From Candidatus Dormibacteraceae bacterium (GTDB lineage Bacteria; Chloroflexota; Dormibacteria; Dormibacterales; Dormibacteraceae), in the NCBI GenBank assembly GCA_041497555.1, contig JBGQGS010000001.1, positions 3,687 through 67,686 of the forward strand: a DNA stretch of 64,000 bases. The letters are read 5' to 3'. The position numbers and the translations under genes were made by a program. Shown here piece by piece: positions 35,370 through 64,000 of the stretch (the stretch's first letter is position 1; each line of letters begins with the position of its first letter). The notes beneath the pieces were generated by a model. The model was not told where the DNA came from. It ran no database searches and worked only from the letters and a program-made list of their open reading frames with translations.

Positions 35370-35373
35370 TATC

Positions 35374-35466
35374 CATCACCAGCGGGAGCTCGCCCTAAGG
35401 CGGGCTGAGAGGGCGCCGTCGCGCCGACCGCATGAACCTGAACTGGGTAATGCCAGCGGAGGGAGT
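35374..35466 (+). promoter_or_regulatory. TPP (THI-box) riboswitch
   Basis: Core elements are readable directly: GGGAGC...GGCUGAGAGG...ACC...GAACCUGAACUGGGUAAUGCCAGCGGAGGGAG. The last GGGAG is the SD of the ATG at 35469. Downstream genes are an NCS1 transporter and thiD. Confidence 0.85.
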
Positions 35467-35468
35467 TA

Positions 35469-47869: not shown

Positions 47870-49591
47870 ATGGCGGCACTGGGGATGAGCCTCGCCCGGG
47901 CTCTTCCAGAATCTCCTGATGCATTCAAGGACGCATCCTGGGAGGACATTCTTCCCTACTACGAAGGGCTCGCTTCGGTCCCGCTCGACCGCACCAACGT
48001 TGAAGCATGGCTGGCCGACTGGTCTCGATTCGAGTCTTTGCTCTCAGAGGCCGGCGCCCTCGTGAGCTTCGCCTACTCGTGCGACACGTCTGATCCCGCT
48101 CGGGAGGCAGCTCAGCTGAGGTTCGGAACGCAGATCTCGCCGAAGGCGCGCGAGCAACGGGTACGCCTGCAGGAGCGCCTGGTCGAGCTGGACTACGTGA
48201 GGCCGGGACTCGAGACGACAGTGGAGCGATTCCGCAACCAGATGAACCTGTTCAGCGAGTTCAACGTACCGCTCTTTGGCGATCTCTCCAGGCTCGAGAC
48301 GGAATGGTCGAAGGTCAACGGGGCGATGACAGTCGATTGGGACGGCGAAGAGAAGACGCCCGCACAGCTCCTGCCCTTTCTCGAGTCGAGTGACCGCGCC
48401 GTGCGAGAGCGCGCTTTCAGGCTGCGCGCCAAGCCGTATATCGAGCAGCGCGACGCACTCGCGGATCTCTTCGATCGCATGTACGACCTGCGCCAGCAGG
48501 TCGCCCGAAATGCGGGCTTCGAAAACTACCGCGACTACGCACACATCGAAAAGAATCGCTTCGACTACACGCCGGACGACTGCAAGCGTTTTCACGAAGC
48601 AGTCGAGTCTGCGGTTCTGCCGGCAGTCGAGCGTCTCCTGGAGCGGCACCGACGTCAGATCGGCGTCGACCGGCTGCGCCCTTGGGACATCACGGCGGAT
48701 GCCAAGGGCCGGCCGCCGCTGAAACCTTTCGACGACATCGCAACCCTCGTCGAGCGCGCAGCCGACGTTTTCGCCCATGTCGACCCAGACTTCCGGGCCT
48801 ACTACCGAAGCATGGCGGAGGAGCACCTACTCGACCTGGACAACCGTAAGGGCAAGGCCCCCGGCGGCTACTGCCAGACGCTCGCGTTCAGGAAGATGCC
48901 GCTCATCTTCATGAATGCGGTGGGGGTTGACGGTGACGTGCGCACACTGTTGCACGAAGCAGGCCACGCGTTCCATTCTTTCGAGGCGTCACAGCTCCCG
49001 CTTCTCTTTCAGCGTCATCCTGGGTCAGAGATGGCTGAGGTCGCGTCGATGTCGATGGAGCTGCTGGCCGCACCCTTCATCGACCGGGATAGCGGGGGAT
49101 ACTACAGCGAGGAAGACGCCCGACGGTCTCGAGCCGAGCTGCTGCAGGGCATCGTCATGTTCTTCACTCACTGTGCCTCGGTCGATGCTTTTCAGCACTG
49201 GATTTACCTGGACAAAGACGGCCGCGACGCCGGTGCCCGCGACCGCGAATGGCTGGAGCTGCGCCGGCGCTTCGAAGGTCCATCGGTGGATTGGGACGGC
49301 CTGGATGCAGAACGAATCGCGCGCTGGTACCAGCAGCCACATCTCTTCGGCAGCCCGTTCTACTACATCGAGTACGGAATCGCGCAGCTCGGCGCGCTGC
49401 AGGTGTGGCGGAACAGCCTGCGGGACGGCGGCAAAGCGGTCCGCCAGTACCGCGAAGCGCTAGCTCTCGGCGCGACGAAGCCGCTGCCCGAGTTGTTCAA
49501 GGCGGCGGGTGCGAGGCTGATCTTCGACAGCAGCGGTATGCGCGAGCTGATCTCGCTGGTCGAGGAAGAACTGGCCAAGCTCGACGGCTGA
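47870..49591 (+). CDS. M3-family oligoendopeptidase (PepF type)
   Basis: Zinc motif HEAGHAFH plus a downstream E (EVASMSME). 573 aa. An alternative ATG lies at 47885. Confidence 0.9.
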   Translation: MAALGMSLARALPESPDAFKDASWEDILPYYEGLASVPLDRTNVEAWLADWSRFESLLSEAGALVSFAYSCDTSDPAREAAQLRFGTQISPKAREQRVRLQERLVELDYVRPGLETTVERFRNQMNLFSEFNVPLFGDLSRLETEWSKVNGAMTVDWDGEEKTPAQLLPFLESSDRAVRERAFRLRAKPYIEQRDALADLFDRMYDLRQQVARNAGFENYRDYAHIEKNRFDYTPDDCKRFHEAVESAVLPAVERLLERHRRQIGVDRLRPWDITADAKGRPPLKPFDDIATLVERAADVFAHVDPDFRAYYRSMAEEHLLDLDNRKGKAPGGYCQTLAFRKMPLIFMNAVGVDGDVRTLLHEAGHAFHSFEASQLPLLFQRHPGSEMAEVASMSMELLAAPFIDRDSGGYYSEEDARRSRAELLQGIVMFFTHCASVDAFQHWIYLDKDGRDAGARDREWLELRRRFEGPSVDWDGLDAERIARWYQQPHLFGSPFYYIEYGIAQLGALQVWRNSLRDGGKAVRQYREALALGATKPLPELFKAAGARLIFDSSGMRELISLVEEELAKLDG

Positions 49592-49609
49592 GGCTGTTGG
49601 GTCCGGATC

Positions 49610-50506
49610 TCAGTTGTTCAGGATGTCCCGCAGCGGTTTTTTGGGACCGAACCGAGGCGCTCCGATCCCGGAGACGGTCAACAACCGGATCACCCGGGCA
49701 CGGTGTCCGCGATACGGGTGGAGCAACTCCAACATGCGCTCGTCGCTCGAACGCGGAGTCCCCTCCAGCGCGTAGCCGACCGTGTGAGGTAGGTGGTAGT
49801 CGCCCACAGGCACCGCGTCCGGGTCGCCCAACGCGACAAGGGCAACTTTCGCCGCGGTCCATGGGCCGATTCCCGGAAATGCTTCCAACCGGCGATATGC
49901 GCTCACCAGGTCCATCGCGGTGATCTCCTCGAGCCGGTTGGCGCTCCTGGCGGCCCGGATGATCACCTCGGCCCGGCGGCGCTCTATACCAAAGCGGTGG
50001 AACGCCCAGTAGGGAGTTCGTGCCAGCTCCTGCGCCGAGGGCGGGATCTTGAGACGCACCGGCCCAGGAGCCGGCTCACCAAGCTCCTCCACGAGGGCTC
50101 GGTACCCGGCTTTCGCCTCGATCGTGGTCACCTTTTGGGCCAGCACAGCCGGCACCAGCGCTTCGAACACCGCCTGCGTCCTTGGAAGCCGCATTCCGGG
50201 GTGGCGGCGGTGCAGGTCCGCGATCAGGCGATGCTGCGGGCGGAAACCGCTGGCGTCGTCCTGCTCCCCGCAAAGCGAAGCAGCTCGTGCAGACACCCAG
50301 TCAGCGCCGGGCCCCCAGGCCTCCACCTCGATCGTTCCCGTCGCATGTCGCAGGTGGATCGTCGCCGGGCCGTCCGGCGTTCGGGTTGCCCGCCACGCAT
50401 CGGTGCCGTCGATCCGGAGTGAGGGACCGAAGCCGATTGGAGCAAGGGTCGAGCAGATGTCGAGGGGCCGGCCGGTTTCATAAGACGTCCGCACGTGCGG
50501 TTCCAC
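49610..50506 (-). CDS. AlkA-like DNA-3-methyladenine glycosylase II (HhH-GPD with N-terminal domain)
   Basis: Contains FPGIGPWTAAKVALVALGDPDAVPVGDYHL. Confidence 0.8.
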   Translation of the reverse strand: MEPHVRTSYETGRPLDICSTLAPIGFGPSLRIDGTDAWRATRTPDGPATIHLRHATGTIEVEAWGPGADWVSARAASLCGEQDDASGFRPQHRLIADLHRRHPGMRLPRTQAVFEALVPAVLAQKVTTIEAKAGYRALVEELGEPAPGPVRLKIPPSAQELARTPYWAFHRFGIERRRAEVIIRAARSANRLEEITAMDLVSAYRRLEAFPGIGPWTAAKVALVALGDPDAVPVGDYHLPHTVGYALEGTPRSSDERMLELLHPYRGHRARVIRLLTVSGIGAPRFGPKKPLRDILNN

Positions 50507-50516
50507 GGCAAGCAGG

Positions 50517-51632
50517 CTACTGCTTCAGGGGAACCGCCAGGACGAAGGTGCTGCCACTTCCCAGCGTGGACTCGACCGTCAGATCTCCGTCATGCATCCG
50601 AGCGATCTCTCTCGAAAGCCAGAGGCCAAGCCCAGTGCCCGGCACATGCTGCGCGGTCGGGATGCGACCGAAACGGGTGAACAGGTTCGCCTGGTCTGCC
50701 GTGCTGATGCCCAAGCCCTGGTCGATCACGCAGACGGTGGCCATCCCGTCCATGCGCCGAATTCGAACCGTGATTACCGAACCGGCCGGCGAGTACTTCG
50801 CCGCGTTGCTCAGCAGGTTTCTGACCACCATCTGAAAGCGGTCGGGGTCAATGTCAGCTTCCAGCGGCTCTGCGGGCTCATCGACCTTGAGGTCGTGGCT
50901 CCTGAGCAGCATCTTCACCCCTTCAATCGCCACGCCCGTGAGCTCGACGATGTCGCCGCGTTTCTTGTTGAGTGCCAGCCGGCCCTCTTCCAGCCGCGAT
51001 GTTTCAACCATCTGCGCGAGCATCCAGTCGATCTCGTCAGACTTCGAGATGAGCAGCGGTAGTACCGAGCTGGCCTGGGGTGACAGCTCGCCCAGGGAAC
51101 CAGCCTCCAGCATGGTCAGGTAGCCCTTGATGATCGTCATGGGTCCGCGCAGCTCGTGCGATGCGATGTTGAGGAACTCGCTCTTGGCCCTTTCGAGGGC
51201 TTGGATCCGTGAGTTCAAAGTCACGCGGTCGAGGCCGGCCGTGATGCTGATCGCATACTGGACGAGGCGACGGATCTCATCGTCACGAAAAATCGGCTTC
51301 AGTCGTCTCGAGACTATGACGATTGCCCCTCTACCCTTCTGGAGATCCAGCGGCACGATGAGCATGTGATCCTTGCGCCAGTGCAGATCTCGCTGGCTTG
51401 CCGCCGGCGGCAGGTCGTTGCGCGCCGCGATCTTCTCCGCCTCGTCCCCGGCCATTCCCAGCGCGGCGAGGATGGACCCGTCCGAATCGATGACAAAGCC
51501 GCTCTCGCCGCCGACCATGCGCTGGGCCCACACGAGCGCCCGGTGCGCGAGCGTCTGGCGGTCCGGGCTGTAAACGAGCAGGTCGTGAAGGGCGCTGCGA
51601 AACTGGTCTTGCTCAGGCTGAAGCCGTGTCAC
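50517..51632 (-). CDS. cytoplasmic GAF-domain sensor histidine kinase
   Basis: H-box FLNIASHELRGPM, N-box LLSNAAKYS, and G-boxes DQGLGI / GTGLGL. Confidence 0.85.
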   Translation of the reverse strand: MTRLQPEQDQFRSALHDLLVYSPDRQTLAHRALVWAQRMVGGESGFVIDSDGSILAALGMAGDEAEKIAARNDLPPAASQRDLHWRKDHMLIVPLDLQKGRGAIVIVSRRLKPIFRDDEIRRLVQYAISITAGLDRVTLNSRIQALERAKSEFLNIASHELRGPMTIIKGYLTMLEAGSLGELSPQASSVLPLLISKSDEIDWMLAQMVETSRLEEGRLALNKKRGDIVELTGVAIEGVKMLLRSHDLKVDEPAEPLEADIDPDRFQMVVRNLLSNAAKYSPAGSVITVRIRRMDGMATVCVIDQGLGISTADQANLFTRFGRIPTAQHVPGTGLGLWLSREIARMHDGDLTVESTLGSGSTFVLAVPLKQ

Positions 51633-51683
51633 CCGGGCGAGGATAGCCCAAATGACGATATTTCAACGACAGGAGAGTTAGTT

Positions 51684-52133
51684 ATGAAGTGGGTGACCCG
51701 AAAGAACGCCAGCGTCGACCGGATCGCCTGCCCGTGGCTGGTCAAGCGGTTCATCGACCCGGACGCAGAGTTCCTGTACGTCCCGGCTCCAGAGGTTGCC
51801 GCCGTGGCTGGGCGCGAGGGCGCTATTCCGTACGACGTCGCGGACGTCGAGCTGGGCCACGTGGACGGCCGGTGCAGCTTTGAGTCGATCATCCTGAAAT
51901 ACGGCCTGCAGGACCCGGCGCTCAACCGCCTGGCCCAGATCGTGCATGGGGCGGATGTCACCGCCGACGTCGACAAGACACCGGAGGCGGCCGGCCTCAA
52001 GGCCATCGCCCATGGGTTCGCCATCGTCCATGGCGAGAACGACCACTTGAAGATCGACCTCGAAAGTCCCCTCTACGACGCCCTGTACGCGTGGTGCCAG
52101 AAGGAGGGGGCGAGAGTCAGGCCGCGGGAGTGA
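51684..52133 (+). CDS. ChrB C-terminal-domain (Chrome_Resist) protein
   Basis: MKWVTRKNASVDRIACPWLVKRFIDPDAEFLYV. AGGAGA lies 7 nt upstream of the ATG at 51684. Confidence 0.75.
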   Translation: MKWVTRKNASVDRIACPWLVKRFIDPDAEFLYVPAPEVAAVAGREGAIPYDVADVELGHVDGRCSFESIILKYGLQDPALNRLAQIVHGADVTADVDKTPEAAGLKAIAHGFAIVHGENDHLKIDLESPLYDALYAWCQKEGARVRPRE

Positions 52134-52872
52134 CCCGTATACCGTCGGGATCACCGCGCTCGCGGTCGAGACGCCTGACCTCGAAACTCTGAAGACCTCG
52201 CACGCCGTCTTCCACCGGCGCAGCGCCATGGCCCTCGAGCAGGTTGATGCCGAGGTGATGGTGGTAGCCATCCCAGCTCATGAAGCGCATCACCCGACCC
52301 GCTTCCGCCGTCAGCTCCATGCCCATCGACTCGTAGAACGCCTGTGAGCTGTCCAGGTCGGAGACGTTGAGGTGCATGTGGCCGAGTACCGTGCTGCCAG
52401 AGACCTTCTTCTCGGGCTTGTCGGCAATTCTCAGGAGCCGCTCGAAATCCAGGTGGTCGGTACCGATGTTCAATCGACCCTTCGGGTACTGCCACTCGCT
52501 GCGAGGACGGTCGGAGTAGACCTCGATGCCGTTTCCCTCCGGGTCGTCGAAATAGAGGGCCTGGCTGACGAAGTGGTCCGCCGTACCTGTCAGCGGCAGC
52601 TGCTCCTCGAGAGAGCGCTGGAGGAAACCACCGAGCTCCTCCTCCCGCGGCAGCAGGATCGCGAAATGGTAGAGGCCGGCCGTATGTTGCGGGCGTTCGC
52701 GTCCGCCCGGCAGCGCCCGGAGGCGAAGCAGTGGTGATCCGCCCGCGCCCAGCGTGGCGGTGGCGGCCCCGTCATCGATGCGCGTGAGGCCGAACCACTC
52801 GTAGAAGGCAACTTCCCGCTCGAGGTCGAGCACCTTGAGCTCGACAGACCCCAGCGGCCATTCAGAAGCCAT
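52117..52872 (-). CDS. two-domain VOC (glyoxalase / extradiol dioxygenase-like) protein
   Basis: 251 aa with two VOC repeats (LKVLDLEREVAFYEW...; HMHLNVSDLDSSQAFYES...). Confidence 0.85.
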   Translation of the reverse strand: MASEWPLGSVELKVLDLEREVAFYEWFGLTRIDDGAATATLGAGGSPLLRLRALPGGRERPQHTAGLYHFAILLPREEELGGFLQRSLEEQLPLTGTADHFVSQALYFDDPEGNGIEVYSDRPRSEWQYPKGRLNIGTDHLDFERLLRIADKPEKKVSGSTVLGHMHLNVSDLDSSQAFYESMGMELTAEAGRVMRFMSWDGYHHHLGINLLEGHGAAPVEDGVRGLQSFEVRRLDRERGDPDGIRVTPAA

Positions 52873-52962: not shown

Positions 52963-53135
52963 TGGCTGGGGAGGAAGGATTCGAACCTTCAAACTTCTGA
53001 TCCAGAGCGATCCGCCATACCACCGATTGCGATTTCGAATTGGCCATTACGTCTGATAAGTGAATTACGCGGTAGTCCCGAGTCTGTCCCGGGCGCAAAC
53101 TTGGCGCAAAACGTGTGCGTAGCGCATCTAACAAG
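52963..53135 (-). ncRNA. conserved ~175-nt element ending in a tRNA-Gln-like T-arm/acceptor/CCA module (copy 1); not a canonical tRNA
   Basis: The minus-strand 3' end reads GAAGG-UUCGAAU-CCUUC-CUCCCCA-G-CCA. A 7-nt loop CUCUGGA puts CUG at the anticodon position, and a D-arm-like GCAA-UCGGUGGUA-UGGC is present. No 5' acceptor strand (UGGGGAG) exists. A second copy lies at 61987-62165. Confidence 0.5.
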
Positions 53136-53273
53136 GGCGCTCTGTTGAGGTTTTCAACCCGCGCGCGGAGCAACTCCCGGGTTCCCGACCGGGGCTCGTC
53201 TACCTCCGGCTTGCGCAGTCAACTTGTATCGGGTTGCCGGCGACGACTCGCGTCGCCAGGTACACCTGAGGGG

Positions 53274-53939
53274 CTAGCCGGGATTCGCCTCGAGCAGGTG
53301 GGTCGCGTCGGCGAGCGACCGCAGCACCACGCGGTCGCCCTTCACGGCGAGGATTGTGACCGACGTGTACATCGGCATCACGGGCAGCTTCCCCCAGCCC
53401 AGCCCGAGCACGTTCGACACGTAGATCCCGATTGCAGCATTGTGTGTGATCGCGACCGCCCGGCCGTTTTCGGGCAGGCCGGCCACGATGTCGCGGATGG
53501 CGGCGGCGACTCGGTCGTACACCTCTGACTCCGACTCCGGAAATGGGTACTCGTCGGGCGCGTTGAGCTCGACTGCACCCCCTTCGTCCCAGTGGGTGCG
53601 CACCTCGCGCAGCCGTTGATCGGTGTGCACGGTCAGTCCGTGCGTCCTGGCGACCGCCTCACCGGTCTCGATCGCGCGGCGCAGGTCCGAAGCCCAGATG
53701 GAGTCGATCGGAACGTCGGCCAGGCGCTGCCCGAGGCGCGCCGCCTGCTCGCGCCCGAGCGGCGTCAGCGTCGGGTCGAGCACCCCTTCGCCGAGCCCTT
53801 CCATGCCAGTGTAGGCATCACCATGGCGCACCAGCCAGACCTCGCGGACGCCTTCGACACCGACCAGATGCCGCTCGTGCATCTCCTCGAGCATGCGGAG
53901 GAAGGCGACGCTGCGGTCGGTCGTGCCCTCCCTGCTCAA
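53274..53939 (-). CDS. histidine phosphatase (phosphoglycerate-mutase-like) family protein
   Basis: VWLVRHGDAY (RHG motif). The TTG start overlaps the upstream stop; the true start may be internal. Confidence 0.85.
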   Translation of the reverse strand: MSREGTTDRSVAFLRMLEEMHERHLVGVEGVREVWLVRHGDAYTGMEGLGEGVLDPTLTPLGREQAARLGQRLADVPIDSIWASDLRRAIETGEAVARTHGLTVHTDQRLREVRTHWDEGGAVELNAPDEYPFPESESEVYDRVAAAIRDIVAGLPENGRAVAITHNAAIGIYVSNVLGLGWGKLPVMPMYTSVTILAVKGDRVVLRSLADATHLLEANPG

Positions 53940-54829
53940 GCCGCCGTAACCGCCCGCTCGATCGCCGTTCGCAGTGCCTCGACAGCGCCGACGCAGAGCG
54001 ACAGCATGTCGGAATCGCGCGCGCCAGTCGAGAGCGCGAAGACGGTGTCACCGTCGAACGGTGTGTGAACGGGTCGGATCGACATCGCGAGCGCGTCGTG
54101 GGCGACCGTGGCCAGGCGATTGCAGGCGGTCTTGTCAAGGCCGGCGTCGGTCGCGACCACTGCCAGGGTGGTGCTGGCGCCCCACACCAGGGGCTTGGGC
54201 GGGCCCTCCGCGAGCAGGCGCGTCGAGGAGTCGGCGGCTGGGCCGCCGACGACGCGTCCTGAGCGGTCGACAACGTCGCCGACTGCGTTGACGACGGCCA
54301 GCGCTCCGACGGTGGCCCCGCTCGGCATGGTGACGCTGGCGGTTCCCAGCCCACCCGGTCTGGGCGGGCCGAAGAGCTTGCCGACCGTGGCGCCGGTTCC
54401 TGCACCGTGGCGTCCGGACCTGCAGACGGCCCCGCGCGCGGCGTCATCACAGGCGGCATAACCCTGATCGGGGCCCGGGTAGGCCGTCGGCGAGCCGGTG
54501 CCGAGGTCGAACAACACCGCGGCCGGAACGATCGGCACCAGCGCCGGGCCGACGGCGACCCCGATCCTGCGCTCGGCCAGCCATCGCATAACGCCGTCGG
54601 CGGCGGCAAGACCGAAGGCCGAGCCACCCGTCAGGAGCACCGCGTGCACCCGCTCCACCGTGCATCCGGGCCTCAGCAAGTCGGTTTCCCGCGTGCCCGG
54701 CGCCGCACCCCTCACGTCGACGCCGGCAACTGCGCCACCGGGCGGGAGCAGCACCACAGTGCAGCCTGTCTTCGCCTGCGGGTCCGACCAGTGCCCGACC
54801 CGAACGCCGGTCACGTCGGTGATCGCCAC
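53936..54829 (-). CDS. P1/S58-family peptidase (DmpA-type aminopeptidase)
   Basis: Contains ITDVTGVRVGHWSD...TGCTVVL...GTRETDLL...LTGGSAFGL. GTG start. Confidence 0.85.
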   Translation of the reverse strand: MAITDVTGVRVGHWSDPQAKTGCTVVLLPPGGAVAGVDVRGAAPGTRETDLLRPGCTVERVHAVLLTGGSAFGLAAADGVMRWLAERRIGVAVGPALVPIVPAAVLFDLGTGSPTAYPGPDQGYAACDDAARGAVCRSGRHGAGTGATVGKLFGPPRPGGLGTASVTMPSGATVGALAVVNAVGDVVDRSGRVVGGPAADSSTRLLAEGPPKPLVWGASTTLAVVATDAGLDKTACNRLATVAHDALAMSIRPVHTPFDGDTVFALSTGARDSDMLSLCVGAVEALRTAIERAVTAA

Positions 54830-54852
54830 GCTCGAACGGTACTCTGCTAGGC

Positions 54853-56043
54853 ATGCCCGGCACCATCGTCCGCGACGAGCTGGTCGCCTTCCTCCAGTCC
54901 CTGGTTCGAGCCAGCTCTCAGTACCTTCCCGATGCCGGCCGCTCGGAGGCGCCGGCGGCGGAGCTGGTCGTCCGGCAGATGCGGCGATGGGGCTGGGAGC
55001 CAGACGTCAGGGAGGTCGAGCCCGGGCGGCCAAACGTGGTCGCGACCATCGACGGCGGGCGCCCTGGCCCGACGCTGCTGTTCGAAGGCCACACCGACGT
55101 AGTGAGCGAGGGCGACTCTTCGAAGTGGACGCACCCGCCATTCGGCGCAGAGATCGTCGAGGGGCGCTTATATGGCCGGGGCTCCGCGGACATGAAGGGC
55201 GGTGTCGCCGCAATGCTGTTCGCGGCGCGCGCGCTCGATCTCGCGCGGCCCTTTCATGGGCGCGTCGTGGTCGCGGCCCTGGTCGACGAGGAAGGGATGA
55301 TGATCGGCGTCAAGGACTTCGTCGCGAGCGGCCGGGCTCTCGGCGTCGACGCAGCGATCATTTGCGAGCCCGAGGAGCGGGAGGTCTGCATTGCGCAGAA
55401 GGGAGCGATCCGCGTCCGGGTCACCTCATGGGGCCGGATGGCCCATGGCGCGATGCCGCAGCATGGGTTGAACCCGATCCCACCGCTGGTCGCATTCGTG
55501 CAGCGGGCCGCGGAGCTGCAGGAAGAGCTGCAGCAGGCGAACGGCGAGCATCCGTACCTGGGCTGGGACTACATCACGCCGACCGTGGTCGTTGCCAACC
55601 GGCCGGAACAGTTCAACGTCATCCCCGACCGCGCCTTTGTCTGGCTCGACATCCGTACGACGCCAGCCACCGACCATGCCAAGCTGCTGGCGCACCTGCG
55701 ATCGATCCTGGGTCAGAACCTCGAGCTCGACGTGATCGACGACCGCCCGTCAACTGAGACACCACACAATCACCCCATCGTCCGCGCGGTCGTCGAGGCG
55801 CATCGAGCCGTTTACGGTGAGACGCCGGCGTTCGGGGGCGTCCCTGGCTCGACCGACGGCACGATCCTGTGGCGCGACGCCGGAATCCCGATTGTCACCT
55901 ACGGGCCGGGCGGCAAGTGGATCGCGCACCAGGTCGACGAATATGTCGAGGTAGATGAAGTGGTGCGGGCGGCCGAGGTCTACGTTGAGGCCGCACGCCG
56001 GTTTTTGAGCGTCGGGATCGAGTCGAGCAGCAGGCGCGTGTAG
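54853..56043 (+). CDS. M20-family metallopeptidase (ArgE/DapE/CPG2 type)
   Basis: Contains LLFEGHTDVV, GRGSADMKGG, and DEEG. Confidence 0.9.
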   Translation: MPGTIVRDELVAFLQSLVRASSQYLPDAGRSEAPAAELVVRQMRRWGWEPDVREVEPGRPNVVATIDGGRPGPTLLFEGHTDVVSEGDSSKWTHPPFGAEIVEGRLYGRGSADMKGGVAAMLFAARALDLARPFHGRVVVAALVDEEGMMIGVKDFVASGRALGVDAAIICEPEEREVCIAQKGAIRVRVTSWGRMAHGAMPQHGLNPIPPLVAFVQRAAELQEELQQANGEHPYLGWDYITPTVVVANRPEQFNVIPDRAFVWLDIRTTPATDHAKLLAHLRSILGQNLELDVIDDRPSTETPHNHPIVRAVVEAHRAVYGETPAFGGVPGSTDGTILWRDAGIPIVTYGPGGKWIAHQVDEYVEVDEVVRAAEVYVEAARRFLSVGIESSSRRV

Positions 56044-56759
56044 GCGTGGCGCGGCGCGCGGAAGATCTCGCGCGTTGGGCCCTCCTCGACGATCGTGCCT
56101 TGGCTCATCACGAGCACCCGATTGCACATGTGGCGGACGATGGAAAGGTCGTGCGAGACGAGTACCAGCGTCAGGTTGAAGCCGACGCGGAGGTCCTCCA
56201 GCAGGTTCAGGATCTGGGCGCGCACGCTGACATCGAGCGCGGAGACGGGCTCGTCTCCAATCAGCACGCGAGGATGCGGCGCCAGGGCGCGCGCGATCGC
56301 GATGCGCTGGCGCTGGCCACCAGAGAACTCGTGCGGGTAGCGGTGCGCCGAGTCGCGCGGCAGCCCGACCGCATCCAGCAGCTCCTCCACCCGCTTGCGG
56401 CGATCCCCCGGCAGCCGCATCACCCGCACCGGCTCGAGGATGATGTCGGTGACCTTCATGCGCGGGTCGAGCGCGCTTACGGGGTCCTGGAAGACGACCT
56501 GGACCTCGCGGGTCAGCCTCCCGCCGGTGTAGGTCACCCGGCCTTCGTCCGGTTGCTCGAGGCCGAGCAGCAACTTCATCAGCGTTGTCTTGCCCGACCC
56601 GGACTCGCCGACCACGCCAAGTGTCTCGCCCCTGCGCAGCGTGAACGAGACATCGTTGACAGCGGTGATCTCGCGGCGGGGGCCGAGGAGGCGGGTCCGC
56701 GCCAGCTGGTAGCGGCGACTGACGTGCTCGACCTCGAAGAGAACGTCGGATTCGCTCAC
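55980..56759 (-). CDS. peptide ABC transporter ATP-binding protein (DppF/OppF type)
   Basis: Contains [17 protein letters not shown], and LIGDEPVSALD. The GTG start overlaps the upstream stop (GTGA). Confidence 0.9.
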   Translation of the reverse strand: MSESDVLFEVEHVSRRYQLARTRLLGPRREITAVNDVSFTLRRGETLGVVGESGSGKTTLMKLLLGLEQPDEGRVTYTGGRLTREVQVVFQDPVSALDPRMKVTDIILEPVRVMRLPGDRRKRVEELLDAVGLPRDSAHRYPHEFSGGQRQRIAIARALAPHPRVLIGDEPVSALDVSVRAQILNLLEDLRVGFNLTLVLVSHDLSIVRHMCNRVLVMSQGTIVEEGPTREIFRAPRHAYTRLLLDSIPTLKNRRAAST

Positions 56760-57715
56760 GGCTCGCCGCCGACCGGGTGCCAGCAGGCGGCAAGGTGATC
56801 GCCGATCCGGGCCAGCGGGGGCATCTCGACGCATATCTCATCCACGTTCGGGCAGCGGTTGCGGAAGGGACAGCCGGGCGGGAACTGGCCGAGCCCGGGC
56901 ACCGAGCCCGGGATCGCTCGCAAGTGGCGATCGGGTAGCTCCTCGTCAAGCGGCGGGATCGCGTCCAACAGCGCCCTCGTGTAGGGGTGTCGCGACCGGT
57001 CGAAGACCTGGTCCACGGTCCCGGTTTCGACGATCTTTCCGCCGTACATGACCAACACCTGGTCGCAGGTGCTCGCCACCACCGGCAGGTCGTGGGTGAT
57101 CAACAGCAGGGTCGCACCTTGCTCGATCACGAGGTCGTCGAGCAGGTGCAGGATCTGGGCCTGCACGGTGACGTCGAGCGCGGTCGTCGGCTCGTCCGCG
57201 ATCAGGATGTCGGGCGAGCAGGCCATCGCCATCGCGATCATCGCCCGCTGCCGCTGGCCGCCGGACAGCTCGTGGGGATAAGCCCGCATCTTTTCCTCCG
57301 GGTCCGGGATGTGGACGCGCTGGAGGTTTCGCGTGGCAGTCGCCAAGGCCTGTTGCCGTCCCATCTGGCGGTGAAGCATGAGCGGCTCCGCGACCTGATC
57401 GCCGATCCGCATGAGCGGGTTGAGTGCCGTCATCGGCTCCTGGAAGACCATGGCGAGCCGGTCGCCGCGGAGCTCGCAGAAATCGTCGTCGGCGAGCGAG
57501 AGGAGGTCGCGACCTTTATAGAGGACGCGACCGGTGGCACTGAGCCCGTCTGGCAGCAGCCCCATCAGCGCCAGGGCGGTCAGCGTCTTTCCGGAGCCGG
57601 ACTCGCCGATCAGGCCGGTCCGGGAGCCCGCCTCGAGCGCGAACGACACCCCGCGCACGGCTTCGATCTCCCCCACCCGCACGCGCAGGTCCTCGACCCC
57701 GAGCGCATCTGCCAC
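56756..57715 (-). CDS. peptide ABC transporter ATP-binding protein (DppD/OppD type)
   Basis: Contains [27 protein letters not shown], and the C-terminal oligopeptide domain [11 protein letters not shown] start at 57715. Confidence 0.9.
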
Positions 57716-57720
57716 GACGT

Positions 57721-58551
57721 TCAGGCCTGCGCCGGGAGGCGCACAACCAGCTTGGGGTCGAGCAGGTCGCGGAGCCCATCCCCGAGCAGGTTGAACCCGA
57801 GCACGCTGAGCGCAATCGCCAGGCCGGGCCAAAGCGCGAGCAGAGGGGCCTGGTAGAGATAGTCCTGGCTGTCGCTGAGCATCCGGCCCCAAGAAGCGGT
57901 CGGTGGCGGCGTGCCGATGCCGAGGTAGCTGAGAGCCGCCTCGGCCAGGATCGCTACCGCGAAGGCGATGGTCGCCTGAACGATCAGGACGTTGGCTACG
58001 TTTGGCAGTAGATGCTGGAGCAGGATCCACCAACCCCGGCTGCCGAAAGTGCGCGCCGCGGTGACATAGTCCATCTCCATCACCTGAAGACCGGCGCCGC
58101 GGACGACGCGCGCGAACACGGGGACGAATGCGATCCCGATCGCCGCCATGGCGGTGACCGTGCTGGGCCGGAAGACGGCCGCGAAGAGCAATGCGAGCAG
58201 GATCGCGGGGAAGGCGAGGAGGACGTCAGAGGCGCGCATGAAGACCTCTTCGAGCGGGCCCCGGTAGAGTGCCGAGAGCGCCCCCACCGGCACGCCGACC
58301 GCAATCGCGATCACGATCGTGACGATGCCGACCAGCAACGTGTTCCGGGCCCCGGCCATGATCCGCGACAGCTCGTCGCGGCCGAACTGGTCGGTGCCGA
58401 GCAGGTAGGCGGAGCTCGGTCCCTGGAAGCGGTCGGGAATCACGACGTGGTCTGGGTCGTGCGGCGTCCAGACCAGGCTGAGCAGCGCGACCAGCACGAC
58501 CAGGCCGACCACGGCCGCCCCCGCGATCAGGGGCAGCGGCAACCGCCTCAT
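57721..58551 (-). CDS. peptide ABC transporter permease (DppC type)
   Basis: Contains LLGTDQFGRDELSR and a BPD_transp_1 core. The ATG overlaps the upstream stop (ATGA). Confidence 0.9.
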   Translation of the reverse strand: MRRLPLPLIAGAAVVGLVVLVALLSLVWTPHDPDHVVIPDRFQGPSSAYLLGTDQFGRDELSRIMAGARNTLLVGIVTIVIAIAVGVPVGALSALYRGPLEEVFMRASDVLLAFPAILLALLFAAVFRPSTVTAMAAIGIAFVPVFARVVRGAGLQVMEMDYVTAARTFGSRGWWILLQHLLPNVANVLIVQATIAFAVAILAEAALSYLGIGTPPPTASWGRMLSDSQDYLYQAPLLALWPGLAIALSVLGFNLLGDGLRDLLDPKLVVRLPAQA

Positions 58552-59495
58552 CGCCGGCTCCGGATCCGGGGGTCGAGCAGCCGGTACGAGAGGTCGACGA
58601 GGAAGTTGACGACCAGGACCACCGTGGTCAGCACCATGACCAGATCCTCCACCACGATCAGGTCGCGATTGCCAACCGATTGAAAGAGAAGGCGCCCGAG
58701 CCCGGGGAGCACGAACACGTTCTCGATCACGATTGCGCCGACCAGCAGCGAGGTGATCTGGATGCCCAGGACGGTCACGACCGGGATCGCCGCGTTCCGG
58801 AAGCCGTGCCGGCGCAGCGCCTGCCAACGCGTCAGGCCCTTGGCGCGCGCGGTGCGGATGAAGTCCTCATGCTGGACCTCGATGATCGCCGACCGGATGA
58901 ACCGGGTCAGCACCGCCGCCTGGACCAGCCCGAGCGCGACCGCGGGCAGCACCAGGCTTCGCGCAGCCGCGACCGGGTCCTCGCTCCAGTCGATGAACCC
59001 GCCAGCCGGAAAGAGCCGCAGCTTCACGGCGAAGATGGTGGCCAGCAGCAGGCCGGCCCAGAATGCAGGGATCGCGATACCGCCCAGGCTGAGCGCGGAG
59101 ATGATCGCTCCGCTCAGACGGCGGTAGCGAACGCCCGCGACCACGCCCACCGGCACCGACACCACGAGCGCGATCACAGCCGCGAGGAGCGCAAGTGGCC
59201 CGCTGACCAAAAGCTTCTGAACGAGCAGCGGGCCGATCTCCGTGTGGGAGAGGACGGAGACGCCGAGGTCGCCGCGGAGCATGCCCCACAGCCACTGCAC
59301 GTAGCGCAGCCACAAGGGCTGGTCGAGGCCCAGTTGGTGGCGGAGGATAGCCACGTTCTCCGGCGTTGCGTTGGTCCCGAGCATTACGGTCGCCACGTCG
59401 CCGGGAAGGAGATTGACGATCACGAAGACGAGGACCGAGGCGGCGACCAAGCTGGCCACCAGAGCGGCCAGCCTGGTCGTGATTGCGACTGTCAA
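58548..59495 (-). CDS. peptide ABC transporter permease (DppB type)
   Basis: Contains FVIVNLLPGD...LGLDQPL...ARAKGL. TTG start 2 nt after the SBP stop. Confidence 0.9.
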   Translation of the reverse strand: MTVAITTRLAALVASLVAASVLVFVIVNLLPGDVATVMLGTNATPENVAILRHQLGLDQPLWLRYVQWLWGMLRGDLGVSVLSHTEIGPLLVQKLLVSGPLALLAAVIALVVSVPVGVVAGVRYRRLSGAIISALSLGGIAIPAFWAGLLLATIFAVKLRLFPAGGFIDWSEDPVAAARSLVLPAVALGLVQAAVLTRFIRSAIIEVQHEDFIRTARAKGLTRWQALRRHGFRNAAIPVVTVLGIQITSLLVGAIVIENVFVLPGLGRLLFQSVGNRDLIVVEDLVMVLTTVVLVVNFLVDLSYRLLDPRIRSRR

Positions 59496-59496
59496 A

Positions 59497-61107
59497 TCAG
59501 TTGAAGTACGCGTCCCCGAGATAGAGCGATGGCGAAATGCCCTGCACCTGGTAGCTCCGGAAGTTGTGCTTGAGAACGGCCAGCTGGTTGGGCGAGAAGA
59601 CCCAGGCGTTGACCGCATCGTCAGCAAGCGTTTTCAGGATTTGCGCGTAGATGCCCTTACGGGTGCTCTCGGTGGGCTCGGCGTCCGCCTGCTTCAGCTG
59701 GCTCGCGACCGTCGGATTGTTGTAGTTCCAGTAGTACTTGGGATTTCCGTAGTTGCCGATGTCGCGCTCCTCGACGTGGTTGATGATCGTCAGGTCGTAG
59801 TCCTGTGGAGGCAGGAACACTGTGTTCAGCCATTGCGCGAACTGCATCGGGATGATGTTCAGCGTCACGCCGATCGACTTCAGCTCACTGTTCAGTATGT
59901 CCGAGCCGCGGACTGCGTACGGGAAGGCGCTGATCTGCGCCATCCGCAGCGTCAGGCCGGAGGCGTACCCGGCAGCCGACAGCAGCTGCTTAGCCTTGTT
60001 GGCGTCGTAGGGGTTGACGCTCGTCTCGTCCACGTAATACGGCTCACCGCCGTTGGGCGCCGAGTGCGAACCGATCGGGACGCCGTAGCCGAACTGAATG
60101 CCGTCGATCCACGCCTTGCGGTCGATCGCAGCGTAGACAGCCTGGCGCACGCGTTTGTCGGCGAGCGGCCCTTTGGCGTTGTTGATCGAGACCATGATCT
60201 TTCCGGTCGGCGCGCCCTTGATGACGGTGAAGTTCTGGTTCGATGCGAACGCCTGCAGCTGCTCCGGCCCTCCGACCTGCCCGATGGCGTCGATGTCCCC
60301 GGCGGTAAGCGCGTTGTTCATCGCGTTGGCGTCGCTGATGAAGCGGAACTCGACGTCCTTGAGCTTCGCCTTCGACCCCCAGTAGGCGTCGTTTCGAGTC
60401 AGCTGCAGGGACGAGCCATGGTTCCAGGCCACGAACTTGAAAGGACCGGTGCCGACCGGGTTGGTCTTGTTGGAGTCGACGGAGTTCTGGGAGACGATGC
60501 AGGCCGAGCCGGCGCCCATGTGGAAGAGCCAGTTGTCGCTGTAGGTGCTCAGCGTGACCTTGACCGTGTGGTCGTCGGACGCGGTGACCGACTGGACGGG
60601 GCCCCAGTAGTCGGCGTGCGGGTTGGCGGGCTTGGTGTTCGGATCCTTGGCTCGCGTCCACGAGTAGACGACGTCCTGCGCGGAGAAGGCGGAGCCGTCG
60701 TGCCACTTGACGCCCTGCGCGAGGTGGAAGGTGACGGTGGTGCCGTCAGAGGACACATCCCAAGACTTGGCCAGGTTGCCGACGATCTTCCCGGTGCCGT
60801 CGAGTCGGATAAGCCCCTCGTACACGTTGTTGAGGAGGCAGGTCGCGATCGACGCCGTGGCGTCGGCCGCCGGATCCATCGAGGTGGGCTCCTGGATGAT
60901 CCCGATGATCGCCTTGCTCTTGGTCGAGGTAGGCTGCGTGCCGGACGAGCTGGTTGCGCAGGCTGCGAGCAGCGATGAGGCGACCGGCAGGCTCAGGCCA
61001 AGGAAGCCGAGCCGGCGCAGCGCCTCTCGCCGGGTGATCTTGCCGGCCAAGAAGTGGTCTAGCTGGCGAACGACGTCCCCGTCTGGTTGCAGTTCTCGGT
61101 CGTCCAT
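59497..61107 (-). CDS. ABC transporter family-5 substrate-binding lipoprotein (peptide/nickel type)
   Basis: Twin-arginine-like TRREALRRLGFLGL plus lipobox LLAAC. 536 aa with an SBP_bac_5-like body. Confidence 0.9.
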   Translation of the reverse strand: MDDRELQPDGDVVRQLDHFLAGKITRREALRRLGFLGLSLPVASSLLAACATSSSGTQPTSTKSKAIIGIIQEPTSMDPAADATASIATCLLNNVYEGLIRLDGTGKIVGNLAKSWDVSSDGTTVTFHLAQGVKWHDGSAFSAQDVVYSWTRAKDPNTKPANPHADYWGPVQSVTASDDHTVKVTLSTYSDNWLFHMGAGSACIVSQNSVDSNKTNPVGTGPFKFVAWNHGSSLQLTRNDAYWGSKAKLKDVEFRFISDANAMNNALTAGDIDAIGQVGGPEQLQAFASNQNFTVIKGAPTGKIMVSINNAKGPLADKRVRQAVYAAIDRKAWIDGIQFGYGVPIGSHSAPNGGEPYYVDETSVNPYDANKAKQLLSAAGYASGLTLRMAQISAFPYAVRGSDILNSELKSIGVTLNIIPMQFAQWLNTVFLPPQDYDLTIINHVEERDIGNYGNPKYYWNYNNPTVASQLKQADAEPTESTRKGIYAQILKTLADDAVNAWVFSPNQLAVLKHNFRSYQVQGISPSLYLGDAYFN

Positions 61108-61143
61108 TTCTTCCTCCCGCCACTTTGAACTGAGGAGCAGATG

Positions 61144-61950
61144 CTACAACGGCGGCGTGAAGCGGCCGTCCTGGGCCAGCCAACCGGCATCCACCACAAG
61201 GTAGGAACCGGTTACGTAGCTGCTGGCATCGGAGCAGAGAAAGACTACGGCACCGACCATCTCAGACGGCTTGGCCCAGCGTCCCAAGGCGTTCTTGTTC
61301 GCGTAGGCGGCATACCACTCGGGATTGTCCTTGATCTGCGCGGTGAGCGGCGTCTCGACCACACCAGGGGCTACCGCATTCACCCGCACGCCGCTCGAGC
61401 CTAGCTCGGACGCGAGCGTCCGCGCCAGCTGCAGCGCGCCCGCCTTGGTCGCCGCGTAGATCGACTGGCCGGGCTCGACCACCTGGGCCCGGATCGAAGA
61501 GAAGACCACGATGCTGCCGCCGCGTCCGGAATCCGCCATCGCCTGCCCAAAGTCGCGCATCAGCCGGAAGGTGCCGACCAGGTTCAGCTCGAAGACGCGG
61601 CGCACGTCGTCGTCGGTCAGCTCGGAGGCACGCTTGCGGACGTTGATCGCAGGAGTGATCACCAGCGCGTCGGGCGCGCCGACCTGCTTCAGCGCCGTCG
61701 CGCAGGAGCCGGCTTCGCGCATGTCGAGCGCGAGCGATTTCGCCTCGCCACCATCGTCACCGATAGCGTCCGACGTCCGCCGCGCCGCGTCTACGTCGAG
61801 GTCGGCGCAGATGGTACGCGCGCCGAACGCGGCGAGGCCGTAGGCGCAAGCTTCACCGATCCCGCTGCCAGCGCCGACCACGAGCGCGGTGCGGCCGGTC
61901 AGGTCGAAGAGCTTCTGGTACTGCTGCATCCGCATGAGGTTAGCGCCCAC
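61144..61950 (-). CDS. SDR-family oxidoreductase
   Basis: Contains TALVVGAGSGIGEA, NAG-like spacing, and YAATKAG. The start is probably an internal ATG (61935 or 61929). Confidence 0.85.
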   Translation of the reverse strand: MGANLMRMQQYQKLFDLTGRTALVVGAGSGIGEACAYGLAAFGARTICADLDVDAARRTSDAIGDDGGEAKSLALDMREAGSCATALKQVGAPDALVITPAINVRKRASELTDDDVRRVFELNLVGTFRLMRDFGQAMADSGRGGSIVVFSSIRAQVVEPGQSIYAATKAGALQLARTLASELGSSGVRVNAVAPGVVETPLTAQIKDNPEWYAAYANKNALGRWAKPSEMVGAVVFLCSDASSYVTGSYLVVDAGWLAQDGRFTPPL

Positions 61951-61986
61951 GAGAAGGTTCAGGCTCGCTTCTCACTGATGCTTCTA

Positions 61987-62165
61987 TGGCTGGGGAGGAA
62001 GGATTCGAACCTTCAACCTTCTGATCCAGAGCGATCTGCGTTATCGCCGGCGCACAAATTGAACTTGACCACCGCGTCTGATGAGTGAATTACGCGGCGG
62101 CCCTGCATCTGAGCGCAGGGCGCGAATTTGGCGCTAATCCAGCGCGTAGCGCATCAATCAAGCCA
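61987..62165 (-). ncRNA. conserved ~175-nt element ending in a tRNA-Gln-like T-arm/acceptor/CCA module (copy 2)
   Basis: The first 50 nt on the plus strand (TGGCTGGGGAGGAAGGATTCGAACC...GATC) differ from copy 1 at one position. Further conserved blocks are separated by variable segments that retain pairing potential. Confidence 0.5.
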
Positions 62166-62186
62166 CCGTCTCGACGACACAGGCTC

Positions 62187-62828
62187 CTAACTCGCTGGTT
62201 GGAGAAGCATGCTGATCAGCGCATCCCCCAGCCATTCCTCGTAGCGGGATGGCGTCCAGCCTCTTTGGAAGACCAGCTGGGTGTACTGGTCGGGGCCGGT
62301 CAATGCCCAGATCACCGCCACCGCCTCCGGCGGTGACATTCCGGCGCGCAGCCGGCCGCTTCGCTGCAACATCGCCGGCAGCCCGAACTGGGTCATGTCC
62401 AGCAATCGTTGCTCCTCCCTCTCGCGAAAGTGCGCGAGCAGGGCTGGATCGCCGGACTCCCGCATGAAGCGGACGAGATCCGCGCAGATTTCATAAATGA
62501 GGCGCGAGACGCGGGCGCCAGTGCGAAGCCCGAGTTCGGGGTCGTCCGATTGGCGCAACGGATCGAACAGCTTCACAGCGTCCGCGACGTGAGGAAAGCC
62601 CACCTCAATGAGGCCCTGTGCGAGTCGCAGCTTGGTACCGAAAGTCGCATACACGGTCTGGTAGGCGACGCCGGCTTCTTTGGCAATGTCCTCCATCGTC
62701 ACGCTGCTGTAGGTCCCGCTGGCGAGGAGCCTTCGAGCCGCCTCGAGGATGCGGGCTCGAGTCATCTGCGCTTGCTCGGTGCGCAGCGCCCCGTTATAGA
62801 CGCGGGTCGTCTTGACAGGCTTGCTCAA
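62187..62828 (-). CDS. TetR/AcrR-family transcriptional regulator
   Basis: HTH RARILEAARRLLASGTYSSVTMEDIAKEAGVAYQTVYATFGTK. TTG start. Confidence 0.85.
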   Translation of the reverse strand: MSKPVKTTRVYNGALRTEQAQMTRARILEAARRLLASGTYSSVTMEDIAKEAGVAYQTVYATFGTKLRLAQGLIEVGFPHVADAVKLFDPLRQSDDPELGLRTGARVSRLIYEICADLVRFMRESGDPALLAHFREREEQRLLDMTQFGLPAMLQRSGRLRAGMSPPEAVAVIWALTGPDQYTQLVFQRGWTPSRYEEWLGDALISMLLQPAS

Positions 62829-63137
62829 TACGGATAGAGTAACAGACTATCGATATTAGGTTGTCTCTAGTGAATAGAAGTCCACTAAGTCGATGAGGTG
62901 CTGGGATGAGCAGATTGGGCGAGATGCGGGATTGGCTTTTGCCGGCGCTAATCCATCTCGATCCGATGGTGGCGATGGCGTACTACCAGTCAGTCGCAAC
63001 GGACGAGGCCTCAACTAAAGCATCGGTGACCGCCCCACGCCGTGCTCTCGTTTCCAACGCACTCAGAGGTATGGCCGTGCTCGACCTGGTAGTCGTTCCA
63101 CGGCCGGCCCCGGTCCGACCGTGATAAGAGCGAGGAG

Positions 63138-64000
63138 GTGACCGGCGCCGCAGTTGTCGTCGGGGGCGGATTCGCCGCCCTTGAGATCGCCCTCGCGCTG
63201 AGGAGCCAGCGGCCCACCATCCCGGTCACGGTGATCAGCAGCGAAACGCAGTTGACCTACCGCCCTTGGCTGATCCGCGTCCCGGCTGGGGGTGCGCCTC
63301 CGCCGGAGATCCCCTTCGCTCGCCTCCTTGCTGCAGCACGGGTCGAAGTGATCGCAAGCACGGTTACCGGCGCTGACGTCGAGGCCCATCGTCTTGTCCT
63401 CGACTCGGGCACCGAGATCGAATATGGCCAGTTGGTGGTGGCCACCGGGACGGTCGCCGACCGTGGCCGCATCCCGGGTGCTCGTGACCATGCACTCTTT
63501 CCTTGCGACCTCGCCGACGCGACGGAATTCGCGGCTCGGGTCGCGTCGTCGAATATCCACATTGTCGTTGTCTTCGGCTGGGAACGGCCGGGACCAGGGC
63601 TCGAATACGCGGCGTGGATCGCCGCTCGTCGTCCCGGCGTCAAGGTGACCGCGATCGATGGCGATGGCACCCTGGCGCGCCGCTTCGGAGACCGGTCCAC
63701 AGCTCACGTCAGAAGGCTGTTCGAGCGGCGCGGAGCGCAGCTCATCACTGAAGGGGCGGTTGAGCGGATCGGCGAAGGAACGGTTGAAGTCGGAGGGCGC
63801 GTGATCGTCGCCGACGTGATCGCCGTGGCCGCGCCGCTTCGCGGTACCACGGCTTGGCTGCCGCCCGACCTTTTGGACGAGCGCGCTATGTTGCGCGTTG
63901 ACAACACGATGGCTGCCACTGCCGGTGTTTTTGGCATTGGCGACGTGGTCTCGGTGCCGGAAGGTTATCGTCTTCCCCCCGCACTCCGGTCGATTCAGGC
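63138..64000 (+). CDS. FAD/NAD(P)-dependent pyridine-nucleotide-disulfide-type oxidoreductase (NDH-2 / SQR-like), N-terminal part; runs off the right edge
   Basis: My own translation starts VTGAAVVVGGGFAALEIAL (GxGxxA Rossmann) and is open to position 64000. It ends with GVFGIGDV, which matches the second FAD motif. It is absent from the ORF track because it has no in-window stop. Confidence 0.75.
   Translation, partial: MTGAAVVVGGGFAALEIALALRSQRPTIPVTVISSETQLTYRPWLIRVPAGGAPPPEIPFARLLAAARVEVIASTVTGADVEAHRLVLDSGTEIEYGQLVVATGTVADRGRIPGARDHALFPCDLADATEFAARVASSNIHIVVVFGWERPGPGLEYAAWIAARRPGVKVTAIDGDGTLARRFGDRSTAHVRRLFERRGAQLITEGAVERIGEGTVEVGGRVIVADVIAVAAPLRGTTAWLPPDLLDERAMLRVDNTMAATAGVFGIGDVVSVPEGYRLPPALRSIQ

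Follow-up and report, generated by a model that had tools for sequence, protein, structure and literature searches.

Within the window (the whole 64-kb stretch of DNA that was analysed), genes of ordinary metabolism on the minus strand, with an M20 peptidase on the plus strand, surround two copies of a ~175-nt element that ends exactly like a glutamine tRNA, and this raises the question of whether the element is a discrete RNA of a new class, as the earlier note implied, or a feature of the DNA itself. Read on the minus strand, copy 1 (52963-53137) ends in a perfect 3′ half of tRNA-Gln(CUG), in which the T-arm GAAGG-TTCGAAT-CCTTC is followed by the acceptor 3′ strand CTCCCCA, the discriminator G and an encoded CCA that ends at position 52963; at the spacing of a tRNA stands a 7-nt loop, CTCTGGA, with CUG in the anticodon position. 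All of these signs, which the earlier note had read from the letters, are present, and so are the two defects that it had pointed out: the 5′ acceptor strand TGGGGAG is absent near copy 1 (the nearest similar sequence, TGGGGGA, lies within coding sequence), and the anticodon stem is unpairable (5′ strand GATCG against TCAGA). The D-arm-like GCAA...TGGC that it had reported was likewise found, pairing at just three of four positions, and its placement of the element about 90 nt upstream of a same-strand VOC gene agrees with the 91 nt that separate copy 1 from the start of that gene.

The description of a conserved, repeated element also stands. Copy 2 (61987-62166, minus strand) is 76.5% identical to copy 1 over 179 nt and was recovered by an nhmmer search with the family profile at 62166-61987 (E = 1.4e-54); the final 28 nt of the two copies are identical (chance expectation for a 28-mer, 0 in 100 shuffles), and the similarity ends exactly at the CCA. 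When compared with the genuine tRNA-Gln(CUG) of related genomes, the last 45 nt match at 45 of 45 positions in copy 2 and at 44 of 45 in copy 1, the sole change being a G>T in the variable loop; the reference for both values is the gene from more than ten related loci, the window genome's own gene lying beyond the available contigs. The 45-nt module is therefore tRNA-derived. Past the end of the window, 3.5 kb from copy 2 and at approximately window-equivalent 65633-65806, comes a third copy that has diverged more; it was read at 186-359 of contig L041, which belongs to the same MAG as the window and extends past the window end (nhmmer E = 2.4e-34), and in this copy the tRNA-type sequence reaches further 5′, to include the GCTGA anticodon-stem strand, and the discriminator is changed. 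The window genome holds at least three copies, and the window contains the two that are most distant from the tRNA. The features of the window are collected in Table 1.

Table 1. Coordinates of the element copies, the cassettes and the conserved flank in the 64-kb window.
Feature	Position	Strand	Basis or content
M3 peptidase	47870-49591	+	
298-aa protein	49610-50506	-	
Histidine kinase	50517-51632	-	
ChrB_C	~51684-52133	+	
VOC	52117-52872	-	
Conserved chromosomal flank	47870-52872	.	Same gene order after the tRNA-Gln region in L044 and L061
Copy 1, tRNA-Gln(CUG)-derived module	52963-53007	-	tRNA positions 32-76, 44/45 nt match; anticodon loop, 3′ anticodon-stem strand, variable loop, T-arm, 3′ acceptor strand, discriminator G, CCA
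Copy 1, diverged tRNA-like segment	53008-53037	-	Low-identity alignment to tRNA positions ~10-31
Copy 1, conserved arm	53038-53137	-	Kept in copy 2 and >15 copies elsewhere
Cassette between the copies	53138-61986	-	Pfam and called genes of L001/L041
Copy 2, tRNA-Gln-derived module	61987-62031	-	tRNA positions 32-76, 45/45 nt
Copy 2, diverged D-arm-like segment and conserved arm	62032-62166	-	Alignments with other copies
Start of the next cassette, tRNA-ward	62187-64000	-	TetR and further genes

Upstream of the module, the diverged segment of copy 1 combines the D-arm-like sequence with a substituted 5′ anticodon-stem strand (GATCG for GCTGA), and the equivalent segment is deleted in the copies of L009/L025. 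The conserved arm contains two direct repeats of TTTGCGCC that are 11 nt apart and thus helically phased, a GC hairpin with a CAGA loop and the box CCGCGTAATTCACTTATCAGACG, in addition to three co-oriented TCAGA motifs; the left half-site beside the anticodon loop (GATCG) is not an inverted repeat of TCAGA.

No described RNA class accounted for this arrangement. ARAGORN called zero tRNA or tmRNA genes in the 64-kb window, as the earlier note had predicted, and an Rfam search at E ≤ 10 returned only two sub-threshold T-arm-like matches per copy and no tmRNA, T-box or Y RNA/YrlA family, in line with its judgement that none of these fits fully; the Rfam tRNA model matches the T-arm alone, with 14-15 bits against a gathering score of 29. 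A complete tRNA or a tRNA pseudogene was rejected on the basis of these results and the missing 5′ acceptor strand, a tmRNA because neither program found one and the acceptor strand is of the Gln type, and an intron-interrupted or split tRNA with a nearby 5′ half because TGGGGAG does not occur within range.

The relatives of the window genome provide the context in which the element can be understood. When one genome per species was scanned with a two-box pattern, the only match was the soil Chloroflexi MAG L007. Metagenome contigs scanned for the arm box yielded about a dozen true loci, and further loci were reached by way of homologues of DUF5808, the gene before the tRNA; because loci were ascertained by an arm-derived pattern, the conservation of that box is partly circular. 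The element of L007 is preceded on its own strand, at a distance of 2.3 kb, by a genuine tRNA-Gln(CUG) that is identical to the module at positions 32-76. A genuine, identical tRNA-Gln(CUG) is found upstream of the element, and co-oriented with it, in L007/L011/L019, L008, L009, L012, L013, L018, L021, L046 and L053/L054. The distance from tRNA to element ranges from 0.45 to 5.8 kb, and the element is downstream and co-oriented in every locus in which it lies within reach of the tRNA. Copies often form arrays of two or three (two in series in L018 and in L010; one full and one partial copy in L027).

Synteny holds both for the genes ahead of the tRNA (Sortilin-like, YjgF, PAP2, CofD and DUF5808) and for those after the array, where VOC or glyoxalase, ChrB_C, the histidine kinase, the 298-aa protein, M3 peptidase, HhH-GPD and PFO correspond to window 43.6-52.9 kb. 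The intervening cargo differs by locus and is of an accessory nature, comprising two-component and LuxR regulators, MFS, DoxX, peroxiredoxin, molybdo-oxidoreductase and SCO4226-like proteins, together with FAD monooxygenases, PemK, an abhydrolase and an ABC transporter. This is a hypervariable island of a soil Chloroflexi-type lineage, located between a single syntenic tRNA-Gln gene (CofD-DUF5808-tRNA) and the VOC/ChrB_C-histidine kinase-M3 peptidase flank. In the window, the gene order is TetR, copy 2, SDR, ABC peptide transporter, S58 and M20 peptidases, histidine phosphatase, copy 1 and VOC; the transporter consists of SBP_5, two permeases and two ATPases, and Pfam detected no integrase or recombinase in the cassette between the copies. 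The window from ~52.9 kb to beyond 64 kb is accordingly to be seen as part of a hypervariable island of horizontally exchanged cassettes, and gene annotation there should reflect that.

The boundaries of the element are sharp and its presence is polymorphic. L010 and L018 are 98.7% identical over 3356 nt, with the identity lost ~6 nt past the CCA of the distal copy, and L007 and L016 share an element that is 96.6% identical, with unrelated DNA to its left and right. Neither arm nor tRNA 3′ fragment is present in L044 and L061, although both have the conserved flanks and the tRNA. Breakpoints at the CCA and element-free syntenic loci together indicate a discrete unit that is either present or absent, and whose 3′ edge is a recombination breakpoint. 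An apparent further case, the difference between L016 and L017 past the CCA, was rejected as a cassette swap: in L017 (3285-~4412) a ~1.1-kb IS with an rve-family transposase was inserted immediately after the CCA of the element, and the L016 flank resumes beyond the IS.

The two parts of the element have diverged to different extents, by 4.9% among copies for the module versus 29% for the arm, and arms are ~29% apart even within one genome, with their boxes kept. Such a difference would result if the modules come from, or are converted by, the invariant tRNA gene and the arms from a diverged pool; the near-perfect conservation of the tRNA half is thus attributed to its derivation from an ultra-conserved tRNA gene, possibly with gene conversion as well, and not to a function of its own. 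Damaged copies persist, with a broken T-stem in L021 and L027, a lost acceptor end in L026 and the changed discriminator of the third copy in the window genome.

With regard to the source of the arm, local alignment to the tRNA gave chance-level similarity, so that a composition of older decayed tRNA fragments was rejected. Homology to the region upstream of the tRNA was rejected for want of a significant match, and a phage, plasmid or viral origin was rejected because plasmid and phage collections gave tRNA T-arm matches only and the pattern matches in viral contigs were due to chance. Arm fragments that comprise the hairpin and the TAATTCAC..ATCAGAC box and that are not accompanied by a tRNA module occur in L012 (10283-10349, minus strand), L020, L010 (206-260), L018 (4757-4811), L013 (11977-12032) and L046 (12041-12131), some of them ~56 nt beyond a complete element. 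On the side of the core away from the arm, no conserved sequence (P′ arm) was found across loci, and shared cassette starts are confined to single lineages. In L007, ~100 nt after the CCA are duplicated with 87.5% identity (4759-4861 and 7200-7301), with one copy following the tRNA and the other the element, and the duplicate ends in a TTGACA motif; no shared start of this kind was seen in other lineages.

The same tRNA gene is used by integrases. In the IMG/VR provirus L034, an identical tRNA is followed at once by a PF00589 integrase; the far end of this provirus was not found within 24 kb. Furthermore, a 10.9-kb mobilizable element (L052 5260-5296; L061 1301-12281), which encodes an integrase, an RHH/PIN toxin-antitoxin pair, a T4 coupling protein (T4CP) and a relaxase, splits the same tRNA-Gln in the anticodon loop, exactly after CTCTGGA, leaving a 5′ tRNA fragment and restoring the tRNA at its distal end. 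Close relatives of this element are found in L058-L060, and the same integrase-element design is present at the same tRNA in L057, a more distant relative. As these integrase elements cut the tRNA at the anticodon loop, the loop is a crossover site, and it is at this point that the identity between the window element and the tRNA starts. The arm of the window element is not detectably homologous to the arms of L057 and L061, the only two integrase-bearing elements with readable far ends.

The cassettes themselves yielded no enzyme of this kind: no integrase, excisionase or transposase was found in ~16 cassettes examined, and neither Pfam on ~60 proteins nor phmmer with the L034 integrase revealed a hidden cassette integrase. 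A 397-aa protein adjoining the tRNA in L053, considered as an integrase, proved to be a membrane protein. Integrases at this tRNA are found only in other element types, and the cassettes lack the integrase gene by which Islander recognizes an intact, active island.

A separate event may be recorded in L008 (~1717-1600, minus strand), where a 15-nt tandem repeat of the tRNA-Gln 3′ end (CTTCCTCCGCAGCCA) directly follows the intact tRNA and is itself followed by an apparent 3′ fragment of a truncated LuxR-type HTH gene, as judged by eye from the DNA; the repeat may have been left by another event that crossed over close to the T-stem/acceptor junction.

We consider it probable that the element is a DNA-level attR-type junction, in which a displaced 3′ part of tRNA-Gln(CUG) is joined to a conserved ~130-nt arm, and that such junctions bound tandem cassettes in the hypervariable island. 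A near-identical tRNA fragment in the same orientation and distal to the gene, non-core genes in between and element-free related sites (L044, L061) are what marks an att junction, and the interval 53138-61986, bounded by two copies and devoid of a recombinase, has the structure of a cis-mobilizable element (CIME). The element has the usual marks of a tDNA fragment displaced to the far end of tRNA-integrated DNA and is not a new RNA class. Accessory-gene cassettes would have been added successively next to the tRNA, each ending in one arm plus tRNA half, and entry would have occurred by Campbell-type recombination with a crossover in or 3′ of the anticodon loop. In this process the arm may carry binding sites for a recombinase or accessory proteins, for which the two TTTGCGCC repeats and the three TCAGA motifs are candidates, and the recombinase was presumably supplied in trans, because no cassette encodes one. 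The further-5′ tRNA-type sequence of the third copy fits conversion or a variable crossover. The tRNA look-alike is explained in this manner as the footprint of ordinary integration at a tRNA gene, which spares effort on a supposed new RNA class.

Displaced 3′ tDNA fragments are known to mark the ends of islands, as in the sublocations of Williams (2002) summarised with the Islander collection, in which 3760 of 3919 islands have a 3′ fragment and 2083 an anticodon-centred attP, and in which tandem arrays are recorded (PMC4383910). Like the anticodon-class attR of Islander-type islands, the element is a tRNA 3′ fragment that begins at the anticodon loop and lies co-oriented and downstream of an intact gene, with variable genes between, tandem arrays and homology that ends at the tRNA 3′ end. 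It is unlike them in that the cassettes examined are without integrase, the units are small (0.45-9 kb) and an arm of ~130 nt is kept across units and several genomes.

The closest described case is that of the ssrA islands of Dehalococcoides (PMC3146451). These are likewise found in Chloroflexi, in tandem downstream of one small-RNA gene, with direct repeats of its 3′ end and a conserved motif just upstream (PMC3146451), and about half of them are without an integration module and have been interpreted as cis-mobilizable elements moved by accretion (PMC3146451). They differ in their tmRNA target, 20-bp repeat and 15-bp conserved flank and in the serine recombinase DsiB that is present in many units (PMC3146451), as opposed to the tRNA-Gln target, 45-nt repeat and ~130-nt arm described here and the lack of a recombinase in the ~16 units examined. 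In the tycheposons of Prochlorococcus, successive integrations displace the older units and leave partial tRNAs behind (bioRxiv 10.1101/2020.12.28.424599). The islands derived from tycheposons resemble the present one in being anchored at a tRNA and hypervariable, with partial tRNAs and degraded units scattered along their length, but tycheposons have their own tyrosine or serine recombinase and no conserved long arm has been reported for them (bioRxiv 10.1101/2020.12.28.424599). The unusual features of the present system are only these two: no cassette examined has an integrase, and the arm is long and conserved.

These two features also allow a stronger reading of the same junction, which we regard as unlikely: that arm plus tRNA half together form a site that is active in recombination and complete in itself, serving an integron-like cassette platform that is anchored at the tRNA and whose enzyme is encoded elsewhere. 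The 3′ half of tRNA-Gln(CUG) would be the place where a tyrosine recombinase takes up and releases cassettes that have no integrase, comprise one to about ten genes and end in a ~180-bp site; the enzyme could be, for example, a XerD-like integrase from one of the elements with a crossover in this anticodon loop, such as that of 317-319 aa in L052/L057. As with integron attC cassettes, the units are promoter-less or small, have no recombinase of their own and end in a discrete, family-conserved site of ~60-180 bp, and they are stacked beside a fixed primary site. Unlike that of integron cassettes, the cargo found here includes multi-gene operons in both orientations. An integron is recognized by an IntI-type tyrosine recombinase adjoining its primary site, and none was found among the genes upstream of the tRNA in the related loci examined by Pfam and gene calls, where Sortilin-like, YjgF, PAP2, CofD and DUF5808 genes stand instead. 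Unlike attC, the site contains a tRNA half. As a candidate for folding with symmetry of the attC type (R''/L''-L'/R'), a helix between box and anticodon loop with a bulged C can be drawn, but its covariation among 13 related sequences is not above that of shuffles. Should the integron-like reading be true, the locus would be dedicated to gene shuffling in soil Chloroflexota/Dormibacteria-type bacteria, and an arm that is an active site served in trans would represent a tRNA-anchored cassette-capture system in a poorly studied soil phylum.

The att-type junction as the preferred reading has to be weighed against explanations that do not involve site-specific integration of the cassettes. The one that survives best, although we judge it improbable, is that arm and tRNA half were joined in one ancient event and spread by local duplication, with gene conversion by the tRNA and no dedicated recombinase site; cargo would have been swapped between strains by homologous recombination anchored at the tRNA, the repeats and the conserved flank. 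The lack of a recombinase in any cassette and of a conserved P′ side is as this explanation would have it, and the far smaller divergence of the module relative to the arm (4.9% versus 29%) as well as the extension of tRNA-type sequence to GCTGA in the third copy would be expected of conversion tracts with variable ends. However, arms that are ~29% apart within one genome and retain the same boxes fit import from a diverged pool better than duplication in situ, the breakpoints are sharp at the CCA and not scattered over the 175-nt repeat, and site-specific integrases demonstrably use the same tRNA.

Less probable still is that the element gives rise to a stable non-coding RNA with a 3′ domain that imitates tRNA-Gln in its T-arm, acceptor strand and CCA, acting, for instance, as the decoy or the substrate of a tRNA-binding enzyme. 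The arm of this RNA would fold by a long-range helix that pairs the box AUCAGACGCGGU with the AUCGCUCUGGAU segment. This helix is part of the model obtained, together with hairpins, by RNAalifold from 13 distinct copies: 95% of cells pair, both-sided changes occur at 107-147 (GC/GU/AU) and 109-145 (UA/CG), and the L009 deletion takes out exactly the segment between the helix strands; the high conservation of the module would also suit an RNA. Against it, covariation was at or below the shuffle mean on the RNAalifold model and on an alternative model, a comparison of low power with 13 related sequences, and conserved RNA secondary structure was accordingly rejected, as neither of the two models counted beats shuffles. 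Single-sequence folds were unconvincing, copy 1 folding worse than shuffles (z = +1.8). No promoter-like or terminator-like motifs were found flanking either copy, nor was there an Rfam match, and copies with a broken T-stem or a lost acceptor end persist. The absence of a 5′ acceptor strand means that there is no acceptor helix for RNase P, the CCA-adding enzyme or a synthetase, and an RNA of this kind does not predict strict linkage to the tRNA gene or element-free syntenic genomes. The implied new class of discrete RNA is therefore not supported, given the tie to the tRNA gene, the CCA breakpoint, the element-free syntenic genomes, the lack of covariation and the T-stem-broken copies.

Lastly, a cis-regulatory leader of riboswitch or T-box type for the downstream gene (VOC after copy 1, as the earlier note had also implied, and SDR after copy 2) is barely credible. 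In its favour, each copy in the window is followed at a distance of 35-91 nt by a co-oriented gene. Against it, the downstream genes are unrelated between copies, the next gene in L009 and L021 is on the opposite strand and convergent on the element, which argues against a general 5′-leader role, an IS directly follows the CCA in L017 and Rfam gave no cis-regulatory match.

Three further observations were made at or near these loci. Variability also occurs on the other side of the tRNA: in L048 (7517-13045), ~5 kb between DUF5808 and tRNA-Gln contain two ABC ATPases and a 1073-aa FtsX-type permease. The DnaB helicase gene upstream of the locus contains an intein with a LAGLIDADG endonuclease domain in L044, L047 and L050 (gene 1), and not in L046/L057. 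Elsewhere in the window, a TPP riboswitch (RF00059; 57.1 bits, above the gathering score) is located at 35371-35481 on the plus strand, directly upstream of the ORF at 35469-36845.
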